A DNA stretch of 64,000 nucleotides from a virus. Both the position numbers and the translations under genes were made by a program. Shown here in pieces: positions 1 through 62,161 of the stretch; position 1 is the first letter of the stretch, and each line of letters opens with the position of its first letter. The notes beneath the pieces were generated by a model. It saw nothing but the letters and a program-made list of their open reading frames with translations. It searched no databases and was not told the origin of the DNA. The stretch covers positions 33,311 to 97,310 of the IMG/VR virus record IMGVR_UViG_3300047321_000445. One strand, given 5' to 3'.

Positions 1-1074
1 GACCGTGCCGCCGAGGCCCTGCGCGCGGCCGGCTGGACCGTCGTCATCGACATCGACGAGGACACCCGGCGCAGCTTCGCCGAGGCCGAGGCGGACCGCG
101 TGGAGCGCGCAGGGAACCGCGCCGACCGGTTCGACGGGTACGCCGACAACGCCGCCTCGCGCTCCGACGCCGCCTATGCCGGGGTCAAGCGGATCGCCGA
201 CGGGATACCGATGGGCCAGCCGATCCTGGTCGGCCACCACAGCGAGGCCGGGGCGCGCCGGGACGTCGCGCGTATGGACGCCGGGATGCGCCGCAGCATC
301 GACGAGGGCGACAAGGCCGCGCACTGGGCCAGCCGCGCCAAGGCCGCAGGCTCGTACGAGGAGTTCCGGAAGGCTCCGGGGCGCACGCTGCGCCGCATCG
401 CCAAGCTGGAGGCCGACCTGCGCCGTGTCGAGAAGTGGCTGCGCGGCGAGAGCGCGGGCGGCTTCACCCGGGACCTCACGCCCGCCACGGTCGCCGAGTT
501 GAACCGGCGCAAGGAGGAGCTGGAGGAAGAGATCGGGTTCTGGCGGCACGTCATTGCCAAGGCCGAGGAAGGCGGCTTCAAGGTCTGGGGCAAGGCCGAC
601 TTCAAGCGCGGCGACTTCGTCCTGTACGGCGGCACCTGGTACGAGGTGCTGCGCGTCAACGCCAAGTCCGTGTCGATCCCGCACATCCACAACGGCACCG
701 GCCGCAGGGTCGTGCGCAAGGGCGACGGCCACGTGGCGGACTGGACCTGGTTGGCCCCGTACGACGACGTGCGCGGCCGCAGGACGGCCGAGGAGCAGGC
801 GGCTGTGGAATCGCCCGCCGAACCGGTCGCCGAGGCCGCTGTGGAGGACGAGAGGCCCGCGCGCTTCGCCGTGGCGATCGAGACCGACGAGCGGGAGTGG
901 ATGCGGTTCCACGAGCGGGACCGCGCGGTCGCCTGCGCGGCGGGCTACGGGCTCGGTGAGGAGTACGTCAAGGACACCCACGAGCCGGCTGCCGAGGCCG
1001 CTGAGGGCGCGGAGAAGCCCGCCGCCGCGGTGCCCGTGATGCACGAGGACCGGTTCCTGCCGCTGGACCGCTGA
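1..1074 (+). CDS. DUF3560 domain protein (5' partial)
   Basis: GQPILVGHHSE signature; frame is open from base 1. Confidence 0.85.
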   Translation, partial: DRAAEALRAAGWTVVIDIDEDTRRSFAEAEADRVERAGNRADRFDGYADNAASRSDAAYAGVKRIADGIPMGQPILVGHHSEAGARRDVARMDAGMRRSIDEGDKAAHWASRAKAAGSYEEFRKAPGRTLRRIAKLEADLRRVEKWLRGESAGGFTRDLTPATVAELNRRKEELEEEIGFWRHVIAKAEEGGFKVWGKADFKRGDFVLYGGTWYEVLRVNAKSVSIPHIHNGTGRRVVRKGDGHVADWTWLAPYDDVRGRRTAEEQAAVESPAEPVAEAAVEDERPARFAVAIETDEREWMRFHERDRAVACAAGYGLGEEYVKDTHEPAAEAAEGAEKPAAAVPVMHEDRFLPLDR

Positions 1075-1172
1075 GCCCCTGGAGTTGCTGCGCCCCTGAC
1101 CCGGTCGAGTGGTCGGGGGCGCAGTCGCGTCCGGGGTCGGCTGCGCCCTGACCAGCAAGGTTTCCAGGAAGG

Positions 1173-1226
1173 GACTTGCTTTCACGTCGGGACGGGTGTA
1201 CCTTAAGTCTTGTGAACGGGGCACAC
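1173..1226 (+). promoter_or_regulatory. Repeated promoter/operator motif A, copy 1
   Basis: TTGCTT(1176)-17 bp-TACCTT(1199), spacer CACGTCGGGAC, downstream GTCTTGTGAACGGG. Confidence 0.8.
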
Positions 1227-1246
1227 CGCCCCCGAAGGGAGAGACG

Positions 1247-2086
1247 ATGATCGCCCACAAGCCCACCCTCGCCACGGTCCTCGCAGTCAGGCCGGCCCAG
1301 CTCACCAGCCTCACCCCGGTCGAGATCGACCGCATGAACCTGGTCCTCTGGACAGAGGTCGACCGCCGAGAGGCCGCCGTCGACCGGGCCGAGGACCGTC
1401 TCTTCAGCGCCCTGCTGATCGACAAGGAGAGCGTCCGCCACGGGCGCGGCTGGCGCCAGGTCTGGCCGGTCAGCGTGACCGAGGCGGAGCGGCTCGCCCG
1501 CGAACACCTCGACACGGGTTACGAGATCAGCGACCGCGACAAGCTGATGCGCGGCCTGCACGGCAACCGCTACGCCGAGCAGCTGGCCGCAGCAGTCGAC
1601 ACGCTGGTGGCCGGCCGGGCCGCGGTGAAGGAGCTCACCGGCGGTCCCGTCGAAGTCCTGGACGACGAGTACCGCCGTCGGGGCGGCTGGTCGCGCATGC
1701 ACCTCTGCCTCACTGACGGAGGCCACATCCACACCGGCCGCGAGTGCCCGAGCATCGGCCCCTCCACCCAGCTGGCATGGCTGCCCGAGGTCTCTGGCAT
1801 GGACTGGCGCGAGGCGTTCGAGACGGTGATCGCCAAGAGCATGGCGGGGAGCACCCAGGTGATCATGTGCACCAAGTGCTACCGGGACGCGCCCACCGAG
1901 TGGACCGAGAAGCAGGCCGACCCCAACGAGTGCCCCATGTCCCGCAAGGACGCGTTCGAGCACATGACGCCCAAGCAGCGCCGCCTGCACCGCAAGTACG
2001 CCACCTGCCCGGGGTGCCAGGAGGGCGTGAGCGTGACGAGCGCCTGGAAGTTCCGCAAGCACGGCAAGCCGCAGCGCGCGGTCTGA
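1247..2086 (+). CDS. Hypothetical protein with C-terminal Cys/His (Zn-binding) motifs
   Basis: RBS GGGAGA before ATG 1247; HIHTGREC, CTKC, CPGC motifs. Confidence 0.75.
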   Translation: MIAHKPTLATVLAVRPAQLTSLTPVEIDRMNLVLWTEVDRREAAVDRAEDRLFSALLIDKESVRHGRGWRQVWPVSVTEAERLAREHLDTGYEISDRDKLMRGLHGNRYAEQLAAAVDTLVAGRAAVKELTGGPVEVLDDEYRRRGGWSRMHLCLTDGGHIHTGRECPSIGPSTQLAWLPEVSGMDWREAFETVIAKSMAGSTQVIMCTKCYRDAPTEWTEKQADPNECPMSRKDAFEHMTPKQRRLHRKYATCPGCQEGVSVTSAWKFRKHGKPQRAV

Positions 2087-2170
2087 CCGGCAGCTGGCTG
2101 GGGCCTGGCACTCGACTTGCCAGGCCCCAGCCCCGGGCTCGGCCCCGGTCTGCGCGGGAGTCTTGGCGTC

Positions 2171-2220
2171 CGACTTGTTTTCACGTCGGGACGTATGTAC
2201 TCTAGGTCTTGTCAACGGAA
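2171..2220 (+). promoter_or_regulatory. Motif A promoter, copy 2
   Basis: TTGTTT(2175)-17-TACTCT(2198). Confidence 0.8.
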
Positions 2221-2241
2221 CACCGACCCACGGAGGACCCC

Positions 2242-2583
2242 ATGATGATCACCCTCGACCTCCCCGAGGCCCTGAGCTACGAGATCGTCTACACGGCCGC
2301 GACGACCTGCCTGGCCAACCGTCGCTCGGGCATCTTCGAGTCCATCTCCATCCCTGCCGCCGAGAACCCCGCCGACGGCTGGAACCTGCGCCTCGTGGCC
2401 CTGAACAAGAAGGACGGCAGCACGCTCCTGGTGGACCTGCTGCGCCCCGTGGACGAGCGCTCCCCGTTCGCCGCCAGCGCCCGCGAGCGCCTGGCCGGAG
2501 GCGAGCGCCTGGCCATGCTGCTGGACCTGCTGCCCGAGCAGGCGCGCGGCGAGGTCATCCGCATCCCGCTCACCCGGGACTGA
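2242..2583 (+). CDS. Hypothetical protein
   Basis: GGAGG RBS, GC3-rich codons. Confidence 0.75.
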   Translation: MMITLDLPEALSYEIVYTAATTCLANRRSGIFESISIPAAENPADGWNLRLVALNKKDGSTLLVDLLRPVDERSPFAASARERLAGGERLAMLLDLLPEQARGEVIRIPLTRD

Positions 2584-2663
2584 CCCACCCCCCCCAGCTC
2601 CGCCCCCGGCTACTCGACTTGGCCGGGGGCGGCCGCCCACCCACCCACCGGAAGGACCCCAGC

Positions 2664-3245
2664 ATGACGACCGCAGCCGCAGGCCTCGGCGGGCTCATCG
2701 CCCGCGCAGCCCCGTTCACCTCGTACCGCACGTACACGTACAACACAGACCCGAACGTCCCGGGCATCCAGGGGCTTGCCACGGTCGCCGAAGCCACGGA
2801 GCTGGTGCGCGCCCACGTGGCTGCTGACAGCCGGCTGCGCAGCACGGCGGCGACCCCCTACGGCGCGGTCATCCTGCACCAGGGCGACACGCATATCCGG
2901 CTGGAGCCGGGCATCGACGCTCGCCCCCAGCGGCTGACCGGGCGCCAGGCCGACGACCTGCTGCTGATCGGCCGTGTTCAGGACCGGGCGAAGGTCGTGT
3001 GGGAGCCGGCCAAGGGGTGGGCGACGGTCCAGGGCGGGGTGTGGCGCATCCCCGCGGTTTCCACGGAGCGGCTGGTCAGGCGTGGATGGATCGCCACGGA
3101 GGGCGCCGACGGGGCCCTGGTGACCGTCTCCCTGGCTGGGGTGGTCGCCCTGCAGTGGCGCTACCTCAAGGGCGAGCGGGTGTCGTCGACTGCGCGCTGG
3201 GCGGAGGACGTGGCCGAGCATGTCGTGGACGTATTCTCCTCGTGA
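2664..3245 (+). CDS. Hypothetical protein (possible C-terminal winged helix)
   Basis: GGAAGGA RBS; ERLVRRGWI...VSLAG pattern. Confidence 0.7.
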   Translation: MTTAAAGLGGLIARAAPFTSYRTYTYNTDPNVPGIQGLATVAEATELVRAHVAADSRLRSTAATPYGAVILHQGDTHIRLEPGIDARPQRLTGRQADDLLLIGRVQDRAKVVWEPAKGWATVQGGVWRIPAVSTERLVRRGWIATEGADGALVTVSLAGVVALQWRYLKGERVSSTARWAEDVAEHVVDVFSS

Positions 3246-3247
3246 CC

Positions 3248-3300
3248 CGACTTGCTTTAACGTCGGGACGCCTGTACCTTAGGTCTTGTGAACGGGGCAC
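3248..3300 (+). promoter_or_regulatory. Motif A promoter, copy 3
   Basis: TTGCTT(3252)-17-TACCTT(3275). Confidence 0.8.
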
Positions 3301-3328
3301 ACCGCCCCGACCGACCGAGGAGGACCCC

Positions 3329-3847
3329 ATGGCCATCACCACCGCGACCGCCACCGGCCAGGCCGAAGCCGACCGCCTGCGCGCCTCGGCCCGCCAGCAC
3401 GAAGCGGACGTGATCGAGTCCCGCGACCGCTGCGACACCGACGGCTTCCTCTCCCAGTGGGCGTCCGGCCGCATGGCCGGCCTGGACTACCTCGCGGCCG
3501 AGATCGCCGAGGCGGGCGGCAAGTGGGACTTCGGCGGCCTCTTCGACCTGGAGGGCAACCTGGTCCCGGCCATCCGGCTCCAGAACCGCTACGACGGCTG
3601 GTCCTGGAAGCTCCTGGACGAGCGCGGCCGGTGCGCTGGCTGGTTCAACGAGTCCAAGGCCAAGACCGAGGAGCGGCGCGTGGCCGCCCACGCCAAGCAG
3701 GGCTTCTACGTCGGCCGCGTCCGCGTCCCGGCCAAGGCCGAGATGCAGGGCGGCAACTACTTCTCGGTGCGGGCGGTCCCGGTCCGCCTGGACGAGGGCT
3801 GGGACCCGGAGGCCGAGATCCTCGACAACGGCCAGCCCACGGCCTGA
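3329..3847 (+). CDS. Conserved actinophage-type hypothetical protein
   Basis: GAGGAGG RBS; RCDTDGFLSQWASG motif. Confidence 0.8.
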   Translation: MAITTATATGQAEADRLRASARQHEADVIESRDRCDTDGFLSQWASGRMAGLDYLAAEIAEAGGKWDFGGLFDLEGNLVPAIRLQNRYDGWSWKLLDERGRCAGWFNESKAKTEERRVAAHAKQGFYVGRVRVPAKAEMQGGNYFSVRAVPVRLDEGWDPEAEILDNGQPTA

Positions 3848-3929
3848 CACCCCGCCCCTTGGCTGCGCCCGGCCACTCGACTTGGCCGGGCGTGGCCGCC
3901 CCCGCCACAAGCCCCAGGAGTAGAGCCCC

Positions 3930-4244
3930 ATGAGCAACCCGCCCACCTCCATCGCCGACCAGCGGCAGGCCTGGAAGAGACTTCGCCCCGAGGCTCTCGC
4001 CCAGCTCGCCACGACCATGAACGCCGCCGAGATAGCCGACGCCTTCGGCGTGGCCCGCCCGGCCGTGGAGCAGCGTCTCGCGTACCACGGTCTCGTCGCC
4101 TGCGTCGGTGGCCCCACGCCCCGCCGCAAGCTCGTCCACAACCGGCTCATCCACTGCCCCGCCACCACGACGCTCGGCACCGTCTGCGGCGCGCCCCAGG
4201 AGCCTGACGGCACCTGCCGGTGGGCCCACCAGCACACGGCCTGA
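3930..4244 (+). CDS. Hypothetical protein, HTH-like N-terminus with Cys/His C-terminus
   Basis: AGGAG RBS; AAEIADAFGVARPAVEQRL. Confidence 0.65.
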   Translation: MSNPPTSIADQRQAWKRLRPEALAQLATTMNAAEIADAFGVARPAVEQRLAYHGLVACVGGPTPRRKLVHNRLIHCPATTTLGTVCGAPQEPDGTCRWAHQHTA

Positions 4245-4341
4245 CACCCCCCTCCCTGGTTGCGCCCGGCCACTCGACTTGGCCGGGCGCAGCCGCCCCG
4301 CTCATCCATCCCCGCTCCATCACCCTCCCGAGGAGAGATCC

Positions 4342-4632
4342 ATGGACACCACCGCTGCATCCACGGCCGGCGCCGAGGACACCCGCCGCGACTGGGCCAT
4401 CGTCGCCATCACCTCCCAGTCCATCCACTGCGCCGACAGGCAGGCCGCCGAGGAGGTGGCTGAAGACCGCCCGCACCTCACGGTCGTCTCGCGGCCGCTC
4501 GGGGGCGAGTGGGAGCCGCTGTCGCAGCCGGTCGTCCCGGTCGACCTGGGGCCGCTGAGCGACGAGCAGCTGGCGGCGCTCCAGTTCGAGGCCGCGCGGC
4601 TGTTGGCGCGCCGTCAGGGCCGCGCGCTGTAG
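4342..4632 (+). CDS. Hypothetical protein
   Basis: GAGGAG RBS. Confidence 0.7.
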   Translation: MDTTAASTAGAEDTRRDWAIVAITSQSIHCADRQAAEEVAEDRPHLTVVSRPLGGEWEPLSQPVVPVDLGPLSDEQLAALQFEAARLLARRQGRAL

Positions 4633-4728
4633 TTCCTGCTGAGTCCTGCTGCGCCCCGGTCGACATGGCCGGGGCGCAGTCGCGTTCGGGGGTGGGCTGT
4701 GCCCTGACCAGCGGGTTTTCACCCCTAG

Positions 4729-4778
4729 GCTTGCATGCACGTCGGGACACGTGTACTCTAGGTCTTGTGAACGGGGCA
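4729..4778 (+). promoter_or_regulatory. Motif A promoter, copy 4
   Basis: TTGCAT(4731)-17-TACTCT(4754). Confidence 0.8.
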
Positions 4779-4805
4779 ACGCCCCACCCGACCGAGGAGG
4801 ACCCC

Positions 4806-5066
4806 ATGGACACCATCGCCGCCGACAACCTGACCGGCACCTACTACCCCGCCGCCCCCGGCGCCCGCACCTGGCGCGAGGCCCGCCCCCTCTACATCGG
4901 CCGCGACCGCGTCTCGGCCGAGATCACGGCCGACCGCCAGGGCTACGTCTTCGTCGGCCTGCACATGGTCTTCGCCGGGGCCATCCCCGCCGACGTCCAG
5001 GGCAGCGCCGACGTGACCCGCTGGGCCCGCGAGGTGGCCCTGTCCACGCTCACGCTCGCCGCCTGA
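4806..5066 (+). CDS. Hypothetical protein
   Basis: GAGGAGG RBS. Confidence 0.75.
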   Translation: MDTIAADNLTGTYYPAAPGARTWREARPLYIGRDRVSAEITADRQGYVFVGLHMVFAGAIPADVQGSADVTRWAREVALSTLTLAA

Positions 5067-5138
5067 CCCACCATCCGCCCGCCGCGCCCCGGCCGCTCGA
5101 CTAGCCCGGGGCGCGGCACCCACCCCGAGAGGAACCCC

Positions 5139-5660
5139 ATGGCCATCGCAGACCTGAAGCTGCTGCCCGCCGTCGCCTTCGACCGCCCCACCCAGGACGG
5201 CATGAAGCCGCTCCCCGAGGGCTACGACCCGAGCCGGCTGACGATCGTCCGCGCCGACCAGGTGCGCACTGGGGACCTGGTCGTCGGCAGCGTCGACCAG
5301 CCCCTGAAGCGCGGCAGCCTGCTCCGCTGGGCGACGTACCTGGCGGCCGCGTACGTCGCGCAGCCGGGCCCGTACGAGGCCGACTGCGCGTCCTGCCGGG
5401 CCTGGACGTCCACGCCCGTGCCGGATGCCGAGTGGGTGTCCCTGGCCCCGCACGTCCCGCAGCTCGCGGACGAGCTGATCTCCATCGTCCCGGCGCCCGA
5501 GCCGGTGGAGGCCGCACCGCGGCCGTGCGTGCACACCTGCACCTGCGAGAACGGCCGCCTGCGGCAGACGACCCGCAGCTTCTACCCGGCCGCCATCTGC
5601 GGCGACTGTCACCGCCGTCCGTGCGGCGCCTGCCGTGACGCGGCCCGCTCGACCCACTGA
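5139..5660 (+). CDS. Hypothetical protein with Cys-rich C-terminus
   Basis: GAGAGGA RBS; several CxxC motifs. Confidence 0.7.
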   Translation: MAIADLKLLPAVAFDRPTQDGMKPLPEGYDPSRLTIVRADQVRTGDLVVGSVDQPLKRGSLLRWATYLAAAYVAQPGPYEADCASCRAWTSTPVPDAEWVSLAPHVPQLADELISIVPAPEPVEAAPRPCVHTCTCENGRLRQTTRSFYPAAICGDCHRRPCGACRDAARSTH

Positions 5661-5729
5661 TCCCACCTCACGGCTGCGCCCCGGCCACTCGACTTGGCCG
5701 GGGCGCAGCACCCACACCGAGAGGACACC

Positions 5730-6305
5730 ATGCCCACCTTCACCTTCCCCAGCGGCGCGACCGTCGAGGCGCCCGACGGACTGCCCCTGTGTGAGCGGCC
5801 CGAGACCGTCACGGAGGACGTCGGCCGTTCCATCCTGGTCGGCCTGACCCGCAGCGACCGACCGGTCTTCTCCACCTTCTCCTGTGCCGCTTACGCCGCC
5901 CTCGGTCGCCTGTTCACCATGCGGGGGGACGTTGCCTACGACCGCCGTCGGGCCGAGCGGCTGGAGGCCCGCGGCCGGACCTGGCAGGCGGGGAACGTGC
6001 GCCGCCATGCCGACGAGCGGGAGGCGCGCAACGAACGGCTCCTGGCGCGCATGGTGGCCGACCCGGCGCCGTGCACGTGCGTGATCCCTTACGTGCCCGC
6101 TGTCGAGCTGGCTGAAGAGGTCGGGGTTCTCAAGGCTGACGTCCTGGAGAAGATCCGCGATCGTGCCGACCGGATGAGGGCGCTCGGGGGGCGGGACGTG
6201 GAGCAGCTCGTTTTCCGCCTGGGCCCCGACGGTGAGGTGCTGGTGGCGCCGATTACGGCTCTGTCGCTGCGGATGCACTTCGCCCAGCCTGCGCACCTGC
6301 GCTGA
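5730..6305 (+). CDS. Hypothetical protein
   Basis: GAGAGGA RBS. Confidence 0.7.
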   Translation: MPTFTFPSGATVEAPDGLPLCERPETVTEDVGRSILVGLTRSDRPVFSTFSCAAYAALGRLFTMRGDVAYDRRRAERLEARGRTWQAGNVRRHADEREARNERLLARMVADPAPCTCVIPYVPAVELAEEVGVLKADVLEKIRDRADRMRALGGRDVEQLVFRLGPDGEVLVAPITALSLRMHFAQPAHLR

Positions 6306-6407
6306 CGCCTGACCCCGGACGCAATACGGCCGTCTGCTGCTTCTCGACTAAGCGGCAGACGGCCGGCCCCCACCGTAGCAAGACTGAACCCCCGGAAGGA
6401 ACCGTTC

Positions 6408-7052
6408 ATGAGCACGACTACGCCCGCCAGACCGGACGTGCCCGCTCTCGCCCACGAGACCGCGCGCATCCTCGGCACTGACTGGCACGCCCAGCCGGAC
6501 ACGGACTGGGTCAGCGCCTGGGCGCTGCACCACCGGGACGGGCGCCGCGTCCGCCTGTACGGCCCGGAGTACGGCAACGAGGGCCGGCTGTACATGGAGG
6601 GACTGCTGCCGAACGCGCCCGAGGACGAGCGGCCGGACCGGACCGGCCTGGACTCCGGGAACATCTCCGTCGCTGCGTCCTCCCCGGCCCGCCGTGTGGC
6701 CGGGGAGATCACCCGGCGCCTGCTGCCCAAGCTGACCCCGGCGTGCGAGGAGTACCGCCGTCGGCTGGAGGAGCTGCGTACGGCGGAGCGAGCCCGCGTG
6801 GCGGCTGCCCGCAGCCTGGCGGAACTGCCGGGCCTGTCGGAGCCGCGCCGGAACTACCACGACCGGAGGGTGACGGCGTATCACCTGGCCTGGGACGGGC
6901 CGAGGCGCGGCGAGTGGCACGGGGCGAAGCCGTCCGCGCGGATCGACGTGGACGCAGACCGGGAGACGGCTGAGCCGCACGTGTGCATGGAGCTGCGGGG
7001 GCTGTCGCCCGAGCAGGCCGAGCGGGTGCTGCGGGCGCTCATCGAGCCGTAG
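6408..7052 (+). CDS. Hypothetical protein
   Basis: GGAAGGA RBS. Confidence 0.7.
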   Translation: MSTTTPARPDVPALAHETARILGTDWHAQPDTDWVSAWALHHRDGRRVRLYGPEYGNEGRLYMEGLLPNAPEDERPDRTGLDSGNISVAASSPARRVAGEITRRLLPKLTPACEEYRRRLEELRTAERARVAAARSLAELPGLSEPRRNYHDRRVTAYHLAWDGPRRGEWHGAKPSARIDVDADRETAEPHVCMELRGLSPEQAERVLRALIEP

Positions 7053-7113
7053 GTCTGAGCGTCGTGGGTGTGCCCCGGCCGGGTTGGTCGGGGCACACCC
7101 ATATCTGCCTCAC

Positions 7114-7166
7114 GTCCCGACTTGCTTTCACGTCGGGACTCATGCATGCTTGGTCTTGCGAACGAC
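7114..7166 (+). promoter_or_regulatory. Motif A promoter, copy 5 (perfect GTCCCGAC-N10-GTCGGGAC inverted repeat)
   Basis: TTGCTT(7122)-17-CATGCT(7145); preceded by a hairpin at 7066-7100. Confidence 0.75.
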
Positions 7167-7191
7167 ACCAGCGACCAGGGATCGGAGATCC

Positions 7192-7896
7192 ATGCCTCAC
7201 GCACGCGCTCAGCTCATCGGCGGCCGCGACCGCCAGTGCGACGCCACCGCCGTCTACACGAAGCACAACAAGGTCCGCGCCTACGTCCTCCTGGACGGCA
7301 TCGGCGACACCACCGACGTCCACCTCTGGACCCTGCTCACCGCCCGCCGCCTGGCCTACCAGGCGGCAAACGACGCCGACGCCGAGGCCGGACTGCGCAC
7401 AGTCCACGCCCGGATCGCCGAGGAGCGCGCCCCGCTCGGCTTGGCCGCAGACTTCGAGCCGTCCGCGGTTGCCGTCGTCGCGGTCGCCATCCCCGGCGAG
7501 CTGCTCCAGGTCGCATGGTGCGGCGACGCCCGCGCCTACGTCCTGCCCGAAGGCGGCGAGTTGCGGCGGCTGACGACCGACCACAACAAGCGCCAGTGGC
7601 TGATCGACCAGGACCTCCCGTTCGGCCCGTACGACCGTAACCAGGTCCTCTCGTACCTCGGCGACACCGCCGAGGACGCGTCGCAGCGGATCGGGACGGC
7701 ACTCGGTCCCGCCTCGGGCCGCCTGCTGCTGGCCTCGGACGGCGCGTACGAGCCCCTGGAGGACTCGTGCATGGACCTGTCGGCCTACCTCGTGGGAAGC
7801 CCGCGTAAGGCCGCCAGGGACTTCACGCAGGCCGCCATCGACCGCGGCTCGGCCCGCCCGGACAACGCCACGGCCCTGGTCGTCGACTTCGGCTGA
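7192..7896 (+). CDS. PP2C/PPM-family Ser/Thr protein phosphatase
   Basis: RDRQCD, LLDGIG, WCGDARAY, LTTDH, LASDG and DNAT motifs. Confidence 0.9.
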   Translation: MPHARAQLIGGRDRQCDATAVYTKHNKVRAYVLLDGIGDTTDVHLWTLLTARRLAYQAANDADAEAGLRTVHARIAEERAPLGLAADFEPSAVAVVAVAIPGELLQVAWCGDARAYVLPEGGELRRLTTDHNKRQWLIDQDLPFGPYDRNQVLSYLGDTAEDASQRIGTALGPASGRLLLASDGAYEPLEDSCMDLSAYLVGSPRKAARDFTQAAIDRGSARPDNATALVVDFG

Positions 7897-7979
7897 TCCC
7901 CGCTCACCGTCCGCCCCGGCTACTCGACTTGGCCGGGGCGGGCCGCCTCTTCCCACCACACCCACTTGAACGGAGAACC

Positions 7980-8549
7980 ATGGACGCTCACGAGTCCCGC
8001 AACTTCCTGGCCGGCCTGGCCAAGAGACTCCCCGCCGAGGTCACCGTCGAAGACCGCGAAGGGCCGGTCACCCGCGAGGCACTGCTGCGGGTCATCCGTA
8101 ACGACCTGCTGCCGGTCCTGGTCCGCAACCCGCTGCACCGCCACCCGCGCAGGCAGCTCCCCGCCCTCTACGGCCCGGTCGCGGCCGGCCTGCGTCAGGC
8201 CCTGGTCGCCTACAGCTCGGGCCGTGGAGAGGACTTCCTGCCCCGGCTGGAGCAGGCTCTCGAGGCCGCGGCGGCCGCCCGCAAGGCGGACGACTACGAC
8301 CCCGCCACGAAGTACGTGACCGCGACGTCCTGGGCAGTCTCGTGCACCCTGGGCGCGCACATCGACGGCGCGATCCTCAACGTCCACGACCTGGACCACG
8401 AGGCGGTCAACGGCCACGGCGGCTGGGGCGTGGTCGTCTGGCACCCGGTCCACGACAAGCGGCAGTTCCCCAGCCAGGACGCAGCTCGCGCCTACGCCCT
8501 GCGGATGGGGCTGCTGCAGCGCTTCGTGCCGAGCCGCGTGCTGGTCTGA
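7980..8549 (+). CDS. Hypothetical protein
   Basis: GGAGA RBS. Confidence 0.7.
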   Translation: MDAHESRNFLAGLAKRLPAEVTVEDREGPVTREALLRVIRNDLLPVLVRNPLHRHPRRQLPALYGPVAAGLRQALVAYSSGRGEDFLPRLEQALEAAAAARKADDYDPATKYVTATSWAVSCTLGAHIDGAILNVHDLDHEAVNGHGGWGVVVWHPVHDKRQFPSQDAARAYALRMGLLQRFVPSRVLV

Positions 8550-8642
8550 CGGTCCCTCGCTGCGCCCCGGTCACTCGACTTGACCGGGGCGCAGCCGTGT
8601 TCGGGGACGGGCAGGCAGCACTCTCCATCTTTCTTGGGGAAC

Positions 8643-8692
8643 CGACTTGCTTTCACGTCGGGACACGTGCATACTAGGTCTTGCGAACGGGG
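8643..8692 (+). promoter_or_regulatory. Motif A promoter, copy 6
   Basis: TTGCTT(8647)-17-CATACT(8670). Confidence 0.8.
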
Positions 8693-8731
8693 AACGGAAA
8701 GTCCGGCCCCACCAACACCGAGGAGCACACC

Positions 8732-9409
8732 ATGGCTAAGACCCCCGCCTACACGATCACCACCACCGACGACACCAAGGTGGACGAGCGGACCGAGGGC
8801 AAGGCGGCCGACAAGCTGGCCCAGAAGCTCACCGCCGAGACCGGCCTGGTCCACCGGGTCTACACCCCGACCGGCAAGCTCCGCCTGGAGACCGAGGTCG
8901 TCGAGCCGGCCCCGGCCGATGAGGTCCCCTCGGTCGACATCAGCGAGGTCCCCGAGGCCGCGCCGGTCGAGGCCGAGGCCGAGGCGGAGGTCGAGGAGGT
9001 CGTGGAGGCCGAGGTCGAGGCCGAGGAGGTCGAGGAGGCCCCCGAGACGGCCCCGGTCGAGGTCCGCGAGATGAACATCGTGGTGCCCAGGGACTTCGTC
9101 TCCTACGCGACGCTGATGGACCTGCTCAAGAACGACGACGACGCGGTCCGCGAGGACGCCGCGTCCGAGTGGGCCTTCCGCCTGGAGGTCTACAAGCGGC
9201 GCACGAACGCCAAGGACGCCTCGAAGCGGATCGTCGGCCCGGCCATGGCGGCGGCGCTGGAGCGCGGCGAGACCACCGACGGGCGGACCATCGCCTCCCT
9301 GGCCAAGCGGGGCCTGGTGGAGCGCGGGGAGGGTCTGGCCTTCACGGTGAACGAGGCCGGGCGCGCGGCCCTGGCCGCTGCGGTCGCCGCGGTGACCGAC
9401 ACCGAGTGA
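8732..9409 (+). CDS. Hypothetical protein with Glu-rich acidic linker and winged-helix-like C-terminus
   Basis: GAGGAG RBS; EAEAEAEVEEVVEAEVEAEEVEE; GRTIASLAKRGLV. Confidence 0.75.
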   Translation: MAKTPAYTITTTDDTKVDERTEGKAADKLAQKLTAETGLVHRVYTPTGKLRLETEVVEPAPADEVPSVDISEVPEAAPVEAEAEAEVEEVVEAEVEAEEVEEAPETAPVEVREMNIVVPRDFVSYATLMDLLKNDDDAVREDAASEWAFRLEVYKRRTNAKDASKRIVGPAMAAALERGETTDGRTIASLAKRGLVERGEGLAFTVNEAGRAALAAAVAAVTDTE

Positions 9410-9469
9410 TCGTCCCTGAGGTTGCGCCCCGGCCACTCGACTTGGCCGGGGCGCGACTGCTTCCCTGGC

Positions 9470-9516
9470 CGACTTGCTTTCACGTCGGGACGTGTGTACT
9501 CTAAGTCTTGTGAGGG
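9470..9516 (+). promoter_or_regulatory. Motif A promoter, copy 7
   Basis: TTGCTT(9474)-17-TACTCT(9497). Confidence 0.8.
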
Positions 9517-9554
9517 ACCGGAACGACCGGCCCACCAACCACCAGGAGGACGCC

Positions 9555-9932
9555 ATGACCGCCACCGCCACCGAGACCCTGGCCCCCGGCACCGTCGTGC
9601 GCGCCCCCCTCTACCGCAACGGCCAGCCCGTCGGCCGACCCCGCCGCGGCATCGTCCTGCGCACCTTCGCCAGCGACGGCAACCCCAAGTCCGGCTACCT
9701 CGTGTGGTTCTACACGCTCGGGGCGGCCCACAAGGACGGCCAGGGCGACACCAGCACGGTCGGCCTGGTCTTCCCGCGCGAGGCCGAGCGCGTCGGCACC
9801 GTCGCCGACATGGGCGACCGGGTGCTGGCCAACGCCGGTAAGGGCCTGCGCGACTGGCCCACCGGCCGCCAGGCCTGGAACGAGATCTACCGCGTCTACG
9901 TCGCCCGGAAGCGCGCGGCCGCGCAGGCCTGA
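9555..9932 (+). CDS. Hypothetical protein
   Basis: AGGAGG RBS. Confidence 0.75.
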   Translation: MTATATETLAPGTVVRAPLYRNGQPVGRPRRGIVLRTFASDGNPKSGYLVWFYTLGAAHKDGQGDTSTVGLVFPREAERVGTVADMGDRVLANAGKGLRDWPTGRQAWNEIYRVYVARKRAAAQA

Positions 9933-10014
9933 CGGCCCCCCTCGCCGGGCCCCGGCCACTCGACTTGGCCGGGGCCCGGCACCCCACCACCCTCCGGAAG
10001 GAACTGAACCGACC

Positions 10015-10536
10015 ATGAACGTCACCGTCTCGCTCCCGTGCGAGTCCACCGCCGAGGCGAACCTGATCCGCAACGCCGTCAACCGCTACCGGCACGTCCT
10101 CAAGGACCAGGGCGTCGACCCGCGCGACTTCGCCCCGCCCAGCGACGAGGGCGCCGGGTTCGGCTGGGACGCCGTGCAGCGCACCGCAGGCGACATGAGC
10201 GCGGGGAGCGTGACCCACATGTCCCCGCGCATGGCGCGCGCCATCCACCTCGCGTTGCAGGACAAGGCGGCCTGGACCCGCGACCCGGACGCGCAGCGCA
10301 TCGCGGCCGTCCTGATGTCCCGGATCAACCGCCTGATCATCCCGCCGAAGGACGGATGGGTCTGCCCCTACATGCCGTTCGGCCACGCCTGGACGGGCGA
10401 CACCGTGTGCCGGTTGTGCGGCGAGACCCGCACCGTCTCCGAGGTCATCACGTCGCTGCTCGCCGGACTGCCCGGCTTCAGCGAGGAGCGTGCAGCCGCC
10501 CTGGTGGCCCGGCACGTCGCCGAGGCCACGGCCTGA
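10015..10536 (+). CDS. Hypothetical protein with C-terminal Cys/His motif
   Basis: GGAAGGA RBS; CPYMPFGHAW...CRLC. Confidence 0.7.
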   Translation: MNVTVSLPCESTAEANLIRNAVNRYRHVLKDQGVDPRDFAPPSDEGAGFGWDAVQRTAGDMSAGSVTHMSPRMARAIHLALQDKAAWTRDPDAQRIAAVLMSRINRLIIPPKDGWVCPYMPFGHAWTGDTVCRLCGETRTVSEVITSLLAGLPGFSEERAAALVARHVAEATA

Positions 10537-10554
10537 CGCGCCCCGTCGGGGCAT

Positions 10555-10604
10555 GAGGAAGCCCGCTGCACCGGCCGGGAGTGGCCTGTGCAGCGGGCTT
10601 CTTC
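10555..10604. terminator. Bidirectional terminator between convergent genes
   Basis: GAAGCCCGCTGCA...TGCAGCGGGCTTC inverted repeat. Confidence 0.75.
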
Positions 10605-10614
10605 GTGTCTCCAG

Positions 10615-11364
10615 TCAGGCGCCGGGAGCCGCCTCGAACGTGTACTCGTAGCCGACGACCATGCGGCGGGGCAGGCACCATTCCCCGTACTCGATGACCC
10701 CCTGCCCGTCCCACAGCCGGTGCGCGCCGGCCAGGATGGGCGCCCCGATCGGCAGGGCGAGGAAATTCGCTTCACGGGCGTCGGCGTCCCGGCCGTGGAC
10801 GTCGTCGCGGCCGTTGGTGATGCGGCGTCCGGTGGCCTGCTGGATCCTCAGCAGCAGTCCGGGCGACGTGTGCGGGGACGTCGACAGCAGCTCGGGAACG
10901 CTCCCGGCGAGGTGCGCCGGGTACCAGGTGACGAAGAGCCCGGTTCGCTGCTTGCCCTTGCCGGTGTGCCACTGACGGCGCACCACCTGGTCGCCCTCGC
11001 CGAGGTCGAGGAGCTCGGCCACGTACTGCGGGGGTTTGACCATCTCGGCCGCTGTGACGATCATCGTCTCGCCCTCGGCGAGGACGCTGCCGGTGCGCAG
11101 GACGCGGGTGATCCGCTCGTAGGAGCTGGGGACGACCTCGGGTGCGTTCGCAACGAACGTGCCGCGGCGGCTGGTGGTGATGTAGCCCTCCACCTGGAGC
11201 TGGTCGATTGCCCGCCCGAGGGTGGCGATCGAGACGCCGTGCGACTCGGCCAGCTCTCGCTGTCCGGGCAGCTTGGCGCCCTCCTGATAACCGTCCTCGC
11301 CGTCGAGGATGCTGCGTCGGATGTCGGCCGCTACGCGCATGTACGGGTGTTCGGTCTCGGGCAT
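10615..11364 (-). CDS. GntR/HutC-family repressor (KorSA/TraR-like)
   Basis: PYMRVAADIRRSI..GAKLPGQRELAESHGVSIATLGRAIDQL winged HTH plus UTRA-like C-terminus; located in a tra/spd element. Confidence 0.9.
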   Translation of the reverse strand: MPETEHPYMRVAADIRRSILDGEDGYQEGAKLPGQRELAESHGVSIATLGRAIDQLQVEGYITTSRRGTFVANAPEVVPSSYERITRVLRTGSVLAEGETMIVTAAEMVKPPQYVAELLDLGEGDQVVRRQWHTGKGKQRTGLFVTWYPAHLAGSVPELLSTSPHTSPGLLLRIQQATGRRITNGRDDVHGRDADAREANFLALPIGAPILAGAHRLWDGQGVIEYGEWCLPRRMVVGYEYTFEAAPGA

Positions 11365-11379
11365 GGTCCTTCTCCTGTA

Positions 11380-11489
11380 TGTCCTAGGGCACTGACGAGC
11401 GTACTAGGACACGCGTAATCCTGGGAGGGGGGAATGCGGGTGCACCCTGGTGAAGTGTCCTAGGTCACGCTATGGTCTGTCCTAGGACA
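11380..11489. promoter_or_regulatory. Four TGTCCTAGGACA-type palindromic operators between gntR and the DUF6415 operon
   Basis: Copies at 11380-91, 11400-11, 11456-67 and 11478-89 (perfect); candidate -10 TATGGT at 11471. Confidence 0.85.
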
Positions 11490-11502
11490 CACCGCGTAAG
11501 CG

Positions 11503-11525
11503 CCCGACGACTCGACTGCGCCGGG
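11503..11525 (+). repeat. Degenerate CTCGACT-loop hairpin in the DUF6415 leader
   Basis: CCCGACG-A-CTCGACT-G-CGCCGGG, extended by CGCGT/ACGCG. Confidence 0.5.
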
Positions 11526-11548
11526 ACGCGCTGCTTCAGGAGCGTCAA

Positions 11549-11917
11549 ATGACGAAGACCGTAGACACAGCGAGTGAGACCGCGCCCGTAGACGTCGCCA
11601 CGATGCGCGAGGCCATCAGCCGGCTGCTCTTGGCTGAGGCTGAACTGCCCGCCAGCGAGGAGCTGGCGACACTGACCGTACAGCTGCGCGGGCACATGCA
11701 GCTGCTCATCCCGGAAGTCGAGGCAGCCGCCGCGAAGCTGCACAGGGACGACGTGGCCCGGTACTGCGCGCTCGCCTGCCTCGGCACGGCCCGCAACCGG
11801 CTCCAGGAGCGGCCGAACCCGAACCCCGGTGGAGACGTCGCGTACGCCCGGCGTCTGGCCCGCGCGCTCAACGCCCTCGTGGACCACAGCGAGAACCTGA
11901 CCGCCCCGAGCTGCTGA
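11549..11917 (+). CDS. DUF6415-family protein
   Basis: PVDVATMR...LRGHMQLLIPEVE...ARRLARAL pattern; AGGAG RBS. Confidence 0.8.
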   Translation: MTKTVDTASETAPVDVATMREAISRLLLAEAELPASEELATLTVQLRGHMQLLIPEVEAAAAKLHRDDVARYCALACLGTARNRLQERPNPNPGGDVAYARRLARALNALVDHSENLTAPSC

Positions 11918-12019
11918 CACCCACAGACCCCCGCCCTCGGGCCCCAGTCCATGGACAGGTCGAGCCCGGGGGCGGGTCGCACCATCGGAAGTCACCTGAC
12001 ACCCGAGGAGAAACACGCC

Positions 12020-12943
12020 ATGACGATCGCTCCCGAGGTTCCCGTCCGGCAGACAGTGCCGGAGTTCCTGGAGCTTGAGATCACCGGCCGCTGTCAGCTC
12101 AGCTGCGGCCACTGCTACGCGGAGTCGGGGCCGACCAACGGCCACGGCACCATGACCGGCGACGACTGGCGGCGGGTCATCACCGAGGCCGCCGCCCTCG
12201 GCACGAAGATCGTGCAGTTCATCGGTGGTGAGCCCACACTGTCGCCCGAATTCGCCGGGCTCGTCTGGCACGCCCTGGAAGCCGGCCTGCGGGTGCAGGT
12301 GTACAGCAACCTGTACCGGGTGCGCGCCGAGCACTGGGACCTGTTCGCGCACCCGCGCGTGAGCCTGGGGACGTCGTACTACTCCGACGTCCCGGACGAG
12401 CACGACGCGATCACCGGCCGGAAGGGCTCTCACGAGTCGACCAGGGCGAACATCGTGGAGGCCATGCGCCGGAACATCCCGGTGAAGGTCGGCATCGTCC
12501 ACATGCGTGACGGGCAGCGCTCCGAGGAAGCCCGCGCCGAGATGGCCGCGCTCGGTGTGGCCCGGGTGCACATCGACCGGGTCCGTGCCGTCGGCAACGC
12601 CTCGACGGCGAAGACGCTGATCCCGTCCACGTCGGAGCTGTGCGGGCGGTGCGCGGACGGGAAGGCGGCAATCCTCCCTGACGGGAAGGTCGCCCCGTGT
12701 GTGCTGGGCCGGTTCCTGCCCGCCGGGGACGTCAAGTCTGGTTCCCTGGAGCAGGTGTTCACCGGGCAGCTGTGGGCGCAGGTCGCGGCGAGCATCCCGC
12801 GACAGCAGCGGACCGCCGGGTGCCTGCCGGACGAGGACTCGTGCCAGCCCGCGCCGCGGAACACCGCCCAGGGCTGCAACCCTGACAGCGACGGTTCGGA
12901 CTGCTCGCCGGCCGAGACCCCGGCCTGCGACCCCTCGTACTAG
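12020..12943 (+). CDS. Radical SAM/SPASM(twitch) protein with C-terminal Cys-x-Pro repeat tail
   Basis: CQLSCGHC, GGEP, CGRC...ILPDGKVAPC; tail CLPDEDSCQP..CNPDSDGSDCSP..CDPSY. Confidence 0.9.
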   Translation: MTIAPEVPVRQTVPEFLELEITGRCQLSCGHCYAESGPTNGHGTMTGDDWRRVITEAAALGTKIVQFIGGEPTLSPEFAGLVWHALEAGLRVQVYSNLYRVRAEHWDLFAHPRVSLGTSYYSDVPDEHDAITGRKGSHESTRANIVEAMRRNIPVKVGIVHMRDGQRSEEARAEMAALGVARVHIDRVRAVGNASTAKTLIPSTSELCGRCADGKAAILPDGKVAPCVLGRFLPAGDVKSGSLEQVFTGQLWAQVAASIPRQQRTAGCLPDEDSCQPAPRNTAQGCNPDSDGSDCSPAETPACDPSY

Positions 12944-12954
12944 GAGACGCCCGG

Positions 12955-14085
12955 ATGGATTGGCAGACGCACGCACGGCGCCTCGCGGCCGATGTGGTCC
13001 GGCCCGAATCACGCTGGTACGAACCGCTCGCCAGCACGCCCCGGCATGTGTTCGTGCCGCGCTGGTGGGCGAACCGCGACGGAAGTTGGGAGCTGCGCGA
13101 CGGTAGCGCCGACCCCGGCGCGTGGATGCGGGCCGCCTACGCGGACCGGACACTCGTGACCCGCATCGGCCCCGTGCACGCCGACCACGCCGAACCCGGC
13201 GCCACGGTCACGGAGGGGAAACCCACGTCCTCATCCACGCTGCCGGGCCTGGTGGTCACCATGTACCGGCACGCGGCCATAGCCGACGACTCCCGGGTCC
13301 TGGTGACGACCGGCACCGGCTACGGCACGGCACTGCTGTGCCGACGACTGGGCGATGAGCGGGTGACGAGTGTGGACGTCGACCCGCATCTGGTGAAGGT
13401 CGCAGCGGAACGCCTCGATTCCATCGGGGTGCACCCGTACACAGCTGTCGTCGACATCACCCGGCACGATCTGGGGCGGCACGACCGGATCGTGTCCACC
13501 GTGTCCGTACGAGCCGTGCCGGCCTCGTGGCTGGCCGCTCTGCGGCCCGGTGGGCGGCTCGTGACGACCATCGCGGGAACCGGGTTGATCCTCATTGCGG
13601 ACAAGACCGAGGACGGCGGGGCTGTGGGCCGCATCGCCCCCGACGCGGCGGGGTTCATGCGCACTCGCCACGGCGACGACTATGACGACGCGACAGCGGA
13701 GGTGTGGAGGAAGGCGCAGTGGATCGACGGTGAGGAAGTGAGCACCAGCCGGTATCCGCTGTTGTACGTGCCGGACTCGTGGGAGGTGATGTCGATGCTG
13801 GAGCTGAAGGTCCCGGGCATCGACCACCGGATCGTGCAGAACGGCAGCGAGCGGACGGTGTGGATGCTGCACGCCGACGGCTCCTGGGCCCGAGCGTACG
13901 CAGCGGAGTCCCTCGACTCGCCGACGGTGTATCAGGGCGGTCCCCGCCGCCTGTGGGACGAACTGGAGCGTGTCCGGAACCGGCTCAACCGTGAGGGCGG
14001 GCTCCCCTTGTACGGTGCCCGGGTCACCATCACCCCGGATGGCGTGACCACGCTGTCGCGAGGTTCCTGGTCCCTCACCCTGTAG
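12955..14085 (+). CDS. Protein-L-isoaspartate O-methyltransferase-like (RiPP-associated type)
   Basis: PRHVFVP, PTSSSTLPGLV, TGTGYGTALL, VTSVDVD, LRPGGRLV, C-terminal QGGPRRLWD. Confidence 0.9.
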   Translation: MDWQTHARRLAADVVRPESRWYEPLASTPRHVFVPRWWANRDGSWELRDGSADPGAWMRAAYADRTLVTRIGPVHADHAEPGATVTEGKPTSSSTLPGLVVTMYRHAAIADDSRVLVTTGTGYGTALLCRRLGDERVTSVDVDPHLVKVAAERLDSIGVHPYTAVVDITRHDLGRHDRIVSTVSVRAVPASWLAALRPGGRLVTTIAGTGLILIADKTEDGGAVGRIAPDAAGFMRTRHGDDYDDATAEVWRKAQWIDGEEVSTSRYPLLYVPDSWEVMSMLELKVPGIDHRIVQNGSERTVWMLHADGSWARAYAAESLDSPTVYQGGPRRLWDELERVRNRLNREGGLPLYGARVTITPDGVTTLSRGSWSLTL

Positions 14086-17067: not shown

Positions 17068-17173
17068 CGGGCACCTCCGAGCAGACTGAGGGGGGTCAGG
17101 GACCAAGCACAGCGCACGCCACTGACAACGCGCGGCAGGTCCCGCCCGGCTCGGGCGGGACCTGCCGGGATGC

Positions 17174-17551
17174 TCAGGGCTGCACGTGCAAGCCCGGTCC
17201 CATCGCCGAGAGCCGCACCCATCCCCGGGCCTTCTCCTCGTAGATGTCGACCAGGCCCGCGAACGCAGGCTTCGTGCGCCGCAGCTCGGCAGCCCATCCG
17301 GCCGTCAGCTCCCGGCCGTCGACCAGGACCTGCCCGTCCAGGCCGATCGCCGTGGAGAGGACCCCGCCACCCTTCGGCAGCTTGTGATAGCTGACGTCGT
17401 TGCCGTCCTCCATCAGCCCGGCGCGCACGGCCTCATCCCACGCCGGCTTCAGCCGCTCCAGCTCACTGACCGGGCCGAAGCTGTCCGGCGCCTCCGACCG
17501 CTTGCGCTTGTCGCGTCGCTGCTGCTTGGCGCGCTTCGCGTCACGTCCCAT
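17174..17551 (-). CDS. Hypothetical protein
   Basis: AAGGAG RBS before ATG 17551. Confidence 0.7.
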   Translation of the reverse strand: MGRDAKRAKQQRRDKRKRSEAPDSFGPVSELERLKPAWDEAVRAGLMEDGNDVSYHKLPKGGGVLSTAIGLDGQVLVDGRELTAGWAAELRRTKPAFAGLVDIYEEKARGWVRLSAMGPGLHVQP

Positions 17552-28977: not shown

Positions 28978-28994
28978 GAAGGGAGCAACAACCC

Positions 28995-29591
28995 GTGTGC
29001 GGGATTTTCGCCTACACCGGGGACGGCGCTCCTGACCGCGAGTTGCTGACCGCCATCACCCGCGCCGCCGCCACCCGAGGGCCGCATGCCCACGGCTGGA
29101 CGGCCGGCGACCAGACACACCGGGCGCTCGGTCCGATGGACGCGGCCGCGGCCGCCCTCGCGTGCCAGGACGCCAGCCGGTGTCTGGGGCACGCGAGGCT
29201 GGCCACCTTCGGCCGGTACGACGACGAGGACGCCATCCAGCCCATCACCGTGAACGGCCACCATGTGGCGTTCAACGGCAACATCTACAACCCGGGCGAC
29301 GTCTACCCGGGCGAGTGGCCTGCCGACACGCACCACCTGGCGCACGCCTACGCCCGCCATCGGGCCGAGCACCCGCCCGGAGCAGCCCTCTCCCTGGCCT
29401 TGCGCCAGGCCGACATGGACGCGGGTGCCGTGGTGGTCCTCGACTCCTCCGGAACCCTCGTCTACTTCCGGCACCGGCTGCCGCTGTTCACCTACCGCAC
29501 CGGCAGCGGCTTCTACCTGGCATCCCGGCGCTTCCACCCCGACGCCGAAGCGGTGCCCGAAAACACTTACGTCCGCGAGGAGCCGCAGTGA
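28995..29591 (+). CDS. Class II (Ntn) glutamine amidotransferase, stand-alone
   Basis: N-terminal (M)CGIF, RGPH, LGHARLA, QP, FNGNIYN. Confidence 0.9.
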   Translation: MCGIFAYTGDGAPDRELLTAITRAAATRGPHAHGWTAGDQTHRALGPMDAAAAALACQDASRCLGHARLATFGRYDDEDAIQPITVNGHHVAFNGNIYNPGDVYPGEWPADTHHLAHAYARHRAEHPPGAALSLALRQADMDAGAVVVLDSSGTLVYFRHRLPLFTYRTGSGFYLASRRFHPDAEAVPENTYVREEPQ

Positions 29592-58922: not shown

Positions 58923-58925
58923 CAT

Positions 58926-58982
58926 AGAAGGGGCGCGGCCTCTCATCCTTCGGGATGGGAAGGCCGCGCCCCTTCTTTTTTT
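58926..58982 (+). terminator. Strong late terminator
   Basis: 16-bp stem plus a T7 run. Confidence 0.9.
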
Positions 58983-62130: not shown

Positions 62131-62161
62131 GGGGGCCGCCCAAGTCGAGTGGGCGGCCCCC
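62131..62161 (-). repeat. CTCGACT-loop hairpin between the hicA and hicB-like genes
   Basis: Minus strand GGGGGCCGCCCA-CTCGACT-TGGGCGGCCCCC (12-bp perfect stem). Confidence 0.9.

Follow-up and report, generated by a model that had tools for sequence, protein, structure and literature searches.

In this study, we describe a family of hairpins that stand at the ends of early genes in the IMG/VR virus record IMGVR_UViG_3300047321_000445 and combine changing stems with a nearly fixed loop of seven nucleotides, CUCGAC(U/C). The window, which is the whole stretch of 64,000 nucleotides analyzed, corresponds to bases 33311-97310 of this 97,310-bp record, whose G+C content is about 70%; positions are those of the window unless the record is named. 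Comparison with a related Streptomyces cavernae prophage, to which amino acid identity is 60-75%, indicates that the stem structure and the loop are both under selection. The family is a strongly supported, undescribed RNA motif that is absent from Rfam. Its general kind is already known from the gene-end hairpins of actinophage early regions, and the new part is the invariant loop with one lineage-specific base. We see about an even chance that these hairpins are cis-acting RNA elements whose loop is read by a trans-acting factor and which set the 3' ends of the messages of individual cistrons.

Gene-end hairpins without a U-tract (U-less hairpins) are abundant in actinobacterial genomes. Their action is disputed, and they have been regarded as true terminators, factor-dependent stops or blocks to 3' exonucleases. 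About 40 hairpins in which pairing and a 7-nt loop are the only fixed features constitute a natural experiment.

The hairpin family and its conservation

The window contains 24 occurrences of the word CTCGACT; shuffled sequences contain 10.0 +/- 3.1, and none of 100 shuffles reached 24. Eleven copies on the + strand (2111-9965) each form the loop of a G+C-rich hairpin of 13-17 bp, and these 11 perfect hairpins span 2096-9980 (Table 1). A twelfth was found on the minus strand at 62131-62161. The record as a whole (97 kb) holds 21 family hairpins, nine of which sit upstream of the window. Outside hairpins, CTCGACT is not avoided, with 12 copies in the window where about 10 are expected. The original prediction had placed an array of 11 such hairpins behind genes at 1088-9980. 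All 11 were found, but the proposed start falls in a hairpin (1087-1125) that carries the loop in reverse complement. The proposed limits were also too narrow, as they missed the minus-strand copy, a degenerate copy at 11492-11531 and the nine upstream copies.

The folding energies of the hairpins range from -30 to -37 kcal/mol, with z of -3.8 to -8.3. Most stems are variants of the consensus GCTGCGCCCCGGCCA, and four copies have unrelated stems. The stems quoted in the original prediction, among them TGGCA/TGCCA at 2096, GGTCA/TGACC at 8557 and an unrelated one at 6327, are all present. The same loop stands on at least four unrelated stems (6327, 2096, 62131 and record 17861), whereas the loops of the element's remaining strong hairpins are quite unlike it.

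A motif scan of public genomes yielded a true family hairpin in S. cavernae. Contig 9 of this genome is syntenic with record 15-66 kb over its region 279-346 kb, and the tblastx identity between the two stretches is 45-92% at the amino acid level, mostly 60-80%. The related prophage in this region carries about 21 further family hairpins, with the loop mostly CTCGACC and in six cases CTCGACT. Copies from both elements were pooled in an ungapped alignment of 35 sequences (A1). In A1, TCGAC was invariant in the loop (35/35), position 1 was C in 34 of 35 copies, and position 7 was either C or T. Over the 16-bp stem, 89% of the cells pair, compared with 63% after shuffling and 34-45% when the partner is slid. 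Compensatory changes on both sides were found in 15 of the 16 stem pairs, and none of 500 shuffles reached any of these measures. Conservation in A1 is limited to the loop and, within the stem, to its CCGG part; the flanks are not conserved. The stems had been described as freely co-varying; the covariation was borne out, but the freedom was not, with most stems tied to one consensus.

Twelve orthologous pairs of hairpins were compared between the two elements. Loop positions 1-6 are identical at 71 of 72 sites (99%), the stems at 80%, and the 32-nt flanks at 36%, which is essentially random. Since the loop is nearly identical between orthologs whose flanks have been randomized, it is maintained by selection and not by recent copying. 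Together with the compensated stem pairs, this agrees with the original proposal of selection on both structure and loop. Position 7 is U in 20 of 21 copies here and C in 15 of 21 in S. cavernae, and it agrees in just two of the 12 orthologous pairs, being U here and C there. This concerted change includes orthologs with unrelated stems (record 17874 and 39653 versus S. cavernae 283727 and 307149). Because unrelated stems lack homology, gene conversion is unlikely at these sites. The concerted one-base change between the two lineages reads as the signature of a specific reader. A further family hairpin with the loop CTCGACC was detected on S. cavernae contig 52 (4815-4859), which belongs either to a second element or to the same prophage, split by a contig break.

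Strand, position and operon context

The stems include 32 G.U pairs on the sense strand, whereas A.C mismatches, the counterparts of G.U on the opposite strand, number only 8. Several stems attain 16 bp on the sense strand only. A covariance model built from A1 (R1) scores 45-60 bits on the sense strand and 17-33 bits on the antisense strand. In addition, 20 of the 21 record copies are oriented with local transcription, for which the coin-toss probability is about 1e-5. They are spread over four separate gene blocks, two on the + strand (record 17-24 kb and 31-43 kb) and two on the - strand (record 28-30 kb and 95 kb). These results indicate that the functional fold lies in the mRNA, on the coding strand.

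We next give the position of the hairpins relative to genes, using our own open reading frame (ORF) calls and taking the upstream gene in the orientation of the loop itself. In the 18 cleanly mapped record copies, the hairpin starts 5-21 nt past the upstream stop codon (7-21 nt in the window). Copies in S. cavernae start 3-17 nt past stop codons, as far as they could be placed by the ORF calls, which are incomplete there. Eight of the 11 array copies (2613, 3876, 4273, 5096, 5688, 6343, 7923 and 9959) lie inside operons, with the next start codon 20-46 nt on and a ribosome-binding site (RBS) but no promoter between. The other three (2111, 8574 and 9436) precede a promoter. A direct lead-in to the RBS had been claimed for seven copies; the arrangement was observed, but the count is eight.

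Thirteen near-identical sigma-70-like promoters lie in record 29-43 kb, and they mark transcription units that are punctuated by the hairpins. Their inverted repeat, GTCCCGAC-N10-GTCGGGAC, covers the -35 box. Each of the 13 is followed by a conserved leader, GTCTTGTGAACGGGGCAC..., which can fold into a small 5' stem-loop (GGGGC-loop-GCCCC). The inverted repeat and the leader stem-loop are probably a repressor operator and a 5' stabilizer.

The family hairpins are not stand-alone intrinsic terminators. A terminator scan picks up no family copy and no T-run follows any of them, as originally noted; their 3' flanks are C-rich. Among the features of canonical intrinsic terminators, they show the G+C-rich hairpin but neither the U-tract of 7-9 nt nor the location at the end of a transcription unit. 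Different signals stand at operon ends. Between the early operon and the GntR gene, which converge, the hairpin at 10548-10611 probably terminates transcription from both sides; its weak match to Rfam P37 was attributed to chance. The same element also uses an ordinary intrinsic terminator at 58923-58979. Since the family hairpins lack a U-tract, are intra-operonic in 8 of 11 cases and leave the operon ends to other terminators, they are not ordinary terminators, which is what the original prediction had argued. It has been reported that U-less hairpins do not stop purified mycobacterial RNA polymerase, whether or not NusA and NusG are added; that study allows for a further factor in termination (PMC3993855).

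The record encodes a tyrosine integrase, ParA, DciA, SSB, RusA, a C5 DNA methylase, an HU-like protein, a GntR regulator and a TraB/FtsK-like translocase, the last with 72% identity to Streptomyces plasmid counterparts. It is a temperate Streptomyces phage or phage-plasmid-like element. No RNA polymerase gene was found among the ORFs scanned of the record, and therefore the element is transcribed by the host enzyme. A gene for a PP2C-like phosphatase is present within the orphan-gene array (7192-7896). A gene for an HU/IHF-like DNA-binding protein (record 23849-24220) lies directly 3' of the gene after hairpin 23178.

Table 1. Hairpins, promoters and terminators located in the window
Feature	Position	Strand	Details
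Inverted member	1087..1125	+	+ strand RNA loop CGGUCGAGU, complement of family loop; in the 3' untranslated region of the DUF3560 gene, before promoter 1173
Sigma-70-like promoter	1173..1232	+	core GACTTGCTTTCACGTCGGGAC; inverted repeat GTCCCGAC/GTCGGGAC
Other promoters of the same type	2172-2240, 3249-3310, 4728-4790, 7119, 8644, 9471		six more elsewhere in the record
Family hairpin	2096..2132	+	loop CTCGACT at 2111-2117; stem unlike consensus (GGCTGGGGCCTGGCA); -35.5 kcal/mol; promoter at 2172 next
Family hairpin	2600..2632	+	one G.U pair; RBS and gene 2664-3245 directly 3'
Family hairpin	3860..3898	+	three sense-strand G.U pairs; gene 3930-4244 directly 3'
Family hairpin	4257..4295	+	gene 4342-4632 directly 3'
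Decayed repeat copy	4648..4680	+	loop now TCGACATGG; before promoter 4728
Family hairpin	5081..5117	+	stem top imperfect; gene 5139-5660 directly 3'
Family hairpin	5673..5709	+	consensus stem; -36.8 kcal/mol; gene 5730-6305 directly 3'
Family hairpin	6327..6365	+	unrelated stem (CGGCCGTCTGCTGCTT); S. cavernae ortholog keeps the loop, with stem changes compensated
Family hairpin	7907..7945	+	two G.U pairs; gene 7980-8549 directly 3'
Family hairpin	8557..8597	+	GGTCA/TGACC variant; promoter at 8644 next
Family hairpin	9418..9460	+	promoter at 9471 next
Family hairpin	9944..9980	+	covariance-model score 60.4 bits; gene 10015-10536 directly 3'
Bidirectional terminator-type hairpin, non-family	10548..10611	.	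about 30 bp; surrounding 101 nt -70.6 kcal/mol
Degenerate copy	11492..11531	+	CTCGACT present, stem poor
Canonical hairpin with T7 tract	58923..58979	+	ordinary intrinsic terminator
Family hairpin	62131..62161	-	different stem (GGGGGCCGCCCA); 10 nt past the stop of a weak HicA-like ORF; next gene 24 nt on

Possible modes of action

In the mechanism that we propose, a factor would read the loop C-U-C-G-A-C-(U/C). This factor would most likely be encoded by the element, because the family is restricted to one lineage and because position 7 switched in concert across independent orthologous sites. The hairpins might be factor-dependent attenuators at which termination is partial or conditional; alternatively, they might cap and protect the 3' ends, with the factor controlling how stable the cap is. 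The step taken by the reader could be to promote or relieve termination at a hairpin that is leaky by itself, to protect or expose a 3' cap, or to cut the RNA. Given the known footprint of the ribosome and the closeness of the stop codon, the base of the 5' arm would be covered during termination of translation, and translation of the upstream gene would then transiently open the stem. In either case, joint tuning of about 20 early genes by a single factor would be possible. If found, the reader would represent a factor new to high-G+C bacteria, acting in termination or post-transcriptionally, and would show a single signal tuning a whole orphan early gene set in a phage. The hairpin is also a possible portable part for intercistronic control in Streptomyces engineering.

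Several points weigh against such a reader. About 35 neighboring ORFs have no recognizable RNA-binding, antiterminator or RNase domain, and no RNA-binding candidate emerged from searches of about 45 ORFs with Pfam and PHROGs or from one Atlas look-up. The family is carried by only two elements, and the covariation rests on paralogs and one ortholog set. The shared stem consensus means that part of the similarity is common descent. Gene conversion could in principle be the source of the concerted change at position 7. Furthermore, U-less hairpins of phage phiC31 were reported as self-sufficient terminators (Ingham, Hunter & Smith 1995, Nucleic Acids Res 23:370, as cited in PMC3993855), and a reader may therefore be unnecessary for a basal effect.

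The hairpins could instead be plain U-less gene-end hairpins that work with no reader, as weak terminators or 3' exonuclease blocks, their loop being conserved by shared descent and homogenization. We consider this rather unlikely. Most stems share GCTGCGCCCCGGCCA, whole units of promoter, gene and hairpin duplicate, and position 7 is homogeneous within each element, as under gene conversion; the termination reported for the U-less early hairpins of phiC31, in the form in which PMC3993855 cites it, also fits. However, the orthologs keep their loops beside diverged flanks and compensated stems, and the copies with unrelated stems keep the loop where no homology is available for conversion. The different loops of the other strong hairpins of the element also speak against it. 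As reported, phiC31 resembles the present case in being a temperate Streptomyces phage with U-less, G+C-rich hairpins between early genes and with units of promoter, gene(s) and hairpin. Unlike the present element, phiC31 has no CTCGACY-loop hairpin, and its repeat is a symmetric palindrome, CTACTCACGTGAGTAG, which we take to be the described repressor operator. Here, conservation lies in a 7-nt loop that lacks symmetry, and the majority of copies are intra-operonic. The loops of strong early hairpins of phiC31 (21357, 21602, 22986, 31169 and 34788) share CACG, half of its palindrome core, and the palindrome tops one terminator-like hairpin. REP/BIME elements (e.g., malE-malF) are likewise stable intercistronic hairpins, which shield the upstream RNA from 3' exonucleases while transcription continues, but they are host-wide with hundreds of copies, whereas the family described here is confined to one mobile-element lineage. 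Even if readerless, the family would be a clean, strongly covarying RNA motif missing from Rfam. Two other readings keep a factor at the loop. The hairpins may be conditional terminators relieved by a loop-binding antiterminator, in the manner of N and boxB, with the recognition loop within every terminator; expression of the early genes behind a hairpin would then have to await synthesis of the factor. This is unlikely in our judgment, although eight promoterless genes do stand behind a hairpin of -30 to -37 kcal/mol, and the loop is invariant in a family specific to the element lineage. Without a U-tract, basal termination is doubtful (PMC3993855), and no protein of the N-like, Q-like or ANTAR type turned up among the scanned ORFs. 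In lambda, a phage protein also reads the loop of an RNA hairpin, not its stem, and alters downstream termination. However, boxB has a stem of about 5 bp and a GNRA-like pentaloop, is accompanied by boxA, and occurs, as known nut sites do, once per operon near the promoter; the hairpins here have stems of 13-17 bp and a 7-nt loop and stand in about 20 copies, each behind a stop codon. As processing or decay tags, the hairpins would be cut in or near the loop by an endoribonuclease specific for sequence and structure, which would mature the early RNA as T7 RNase III sites do or silence it in the manner of T4 RegB. The intercistronic location, the exposed, invariant loop and the position of one copy directly behind a weak HicA-like (RNase-fold) ORF at 62172-62372 (-) are in keeping with this, and the conserved leader stem-loop from every promoter suggests messages built for controlled stability. 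Such tags are nevertheless improbable: the HicA-like match reaches 19.3 bits against a Pfam cut-off of 27, no homolog of this ORF was found in the S. cavernae stretch searched, and the stems are perfect, with none of the internal loops of RNase III sites. The T7 sites likewise separate the cistrons of a polycistronic early transcript as hairpins and leave a 3' stem on each message, but their duplex is about 20 bp or longer and is interrupted by an internal loop or bulge where cleavage occurs, and their terminal loop is unconserved, in contrast to the short perfect stems and invariant terminal loop found here. The analogies to boxB and to T7 RNase III sites drawn in the original prediction were not upheld, as the defining features of both are absent.

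At the DNA level, the hairpins might be cruciforms or single-stranded DNA hairpins used for cassette recombination, as attC sites are, or bound by a DNA regulator, as stoperators are. Gene content between the hairpins does differ between the record and S. cavernae, and a homolog of gene 4342-4632 is found at two other positions there. Moreover, window 8554-9451 recurs in inverted orientation at record 28386-29189, with 75% identity over about 900 nt; this duplicated unit consists of hairpin, promoter, gene and hairpin, and both of its ends lie inside hairpins. A tyrosine integrase is encoded in the record, and one inverted copy keeps its loop sequence in both relatives. We nevertheless hold a DNA-level role to be highly improbable, and the proposed cruciform or recombination site was not supported. 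DNA pairing offers no explanation for the sense-strand excess of G.U pairs, orientation follows transcription, and most of the array is still colinear between the two elements. The tyrosine recombinase (record 906-1907) is about 34 kb from the array, at the record end, and matches only general phage-integrase families (Phage_integrase). An attC site is likewise an imperfect palindrome right behind the stop codon of promoterless, co-oriented genes, but it is recognized as folded bottom-strand DNA through extrahelical bases and R/L boxes and has a variable loop. Here the stems are continuous, the loop is conserved and the mismatches are mostly G.U, following RNA pairing rules; alignment A1 contains neither R''/L''-L'/R' boxes nor the GTTRRRY core. 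The stoperators of mycobacteriophage L5 are asymmetric double-stranded DNA sites of about 13 bp that are oriented with transcription and bound by repressor. The orientation is shared, but the family has only 6-7 fixed bases, too few for a double-strand operator, together with flanking dyad symmetry and RNA pairing rules, and the rest of the window shows no avoidance of CTCGACT. The inverted duplication fits recombination between repeated regulatory modules, as proposed for the PeSL (promoter-early stem-loop) cassettes of T4-type phages that Arbiol et al. reportedly described in 2010. PeSL modules also consist of a repeated promoter and stem-loop, are found on either side of small orphan genes within a plastic region, and can be shuffled through their repeats; their conservation, however, is ascribed to the promoter and to recombination, and we know of no description of an invariant loop on covarying stems for them. 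Of the cassette idea in the original prediction, the differing gene content and the one inverted duplication stand, whereas the integron-like system does not, and the duplication looks like a by-product of repeated sequence.

The inverted member at 1087-1125 raises one more possibility, in which the loops would be RNA-RNA docking sites. This hairpin would kiss the loops of about 20 gene ends and couple all early messages to one transcript, giving a one-to-many kissing-loop regulon in a phage. Exactly one hairpin with the complementary loop exists per element, at orthologous places, and the S. cavernae ortholog has the loop AGUCGAG. The CUCG of the family loop matches the YUNR pattern, a U-turn motif that Franch et al. 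reportedly described in 1999 in the loops of fast-pairing antisense RNAs. We nonetheless regard kissing as very unlikely. The base facing position 7 co-varies wrongly (G here versus mostly U; A in S. cavernae versus mostly C), and the probability of retaining six bases by chance over such divergence is about 0.2. The hairpin is part of a longer repeat with two copies (1087-1160 and 4648-4720), in which a segment after the hairpin is able to pair with the hairpin 3' arm instead. Both copies stand at operon ends just upstream of promoters in a three-segment, switch-like layout, and in the S. cavernae ortholog both alternative pairings are kept through compensating changes. Many homologs were found for the DUF3560 protein.

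Several other candidate partners or origins of the loop were considered and dropped. Pairing with the downstream RBS gave only 4 bp. Pairing with the 3' end of 16S rRNA, TraB clt repeats and primase sites were likewise set aside, as was pairing with a phage tRNA, the record having no tRNA genes. Mimicry of the tRNA-Ser(CGA) anticodon loop is limited to positions 32-36, and a resemblance to a promoter -35 box (CGACTTG) exists only where the stem closes with A-T. The two GTCGAG words in a 162-nt spacer (record 17114-17275) are not in loops.

Distribution of the family

A search of window 1-13000 against Rfam yielded no more than three matches, which were at chance level (E 0.2-0.5) and fell far short of the gathering scores. 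One of them, CcsR1 on the minus strand at 3864-3938 (20.1 versus 65.3 bits), overlaps the hairpin at 3860-3898. A match to a known Rfam family had been named as a check on the motif, and none was credible. No description of the CUCGAC(U/C) motif was found in the literature searched.

A host-wide repeat was the other check. When model R1 was run on 151 Streptomyces genomes, the family was found in S. cavernae only, with 14 of 15 matches inside the related prophage. Two other Streptomyces genomes gave one weak match each, one of them with a CTCGACC-containing loop. The five genomes richest in pattern matches among 401 gave no R1 match, and neither did phage phiC31. These results show that the family is not a host-wide REP-like repeat.

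Exact-motif scans of IMG/VR gave 0 matches, and a metagenome scan gave seven, all short-stemmed and of the chance type. A scan of a genome collection returned at least 120 matches, nearly all of which derive from one conserved coding sequence, CCGGCTG-CTCGACT-CGACCGG; the sole real hairpin was that of S. cavernae. The coding sequence encodes ...RLLDSTGEFTAEV... in Micromonospora, Gordonia, Streptomyces and others, and is a trap for pattern searches. No close relative of the element was found in phage and plasmid collections, which possibly do not cover records near the window, and a TraB-based locus search of IMG/VR gave no relative.

A protein search of the 401 Streptomyces genomes identified two relatives, S. 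cavernae and a distant one, G309. In the G309 element, the homolog of gene 6408-7052 has 38% identity. At contig 19, 111-116 kb, this element has at least four intergenic hairpins with the sense loop UUGGCC or UUGGUC and with differing stems. Gene-end hairpins with a fixed, lineage-specific loop may be a wider habit of such Streptomyces elements.

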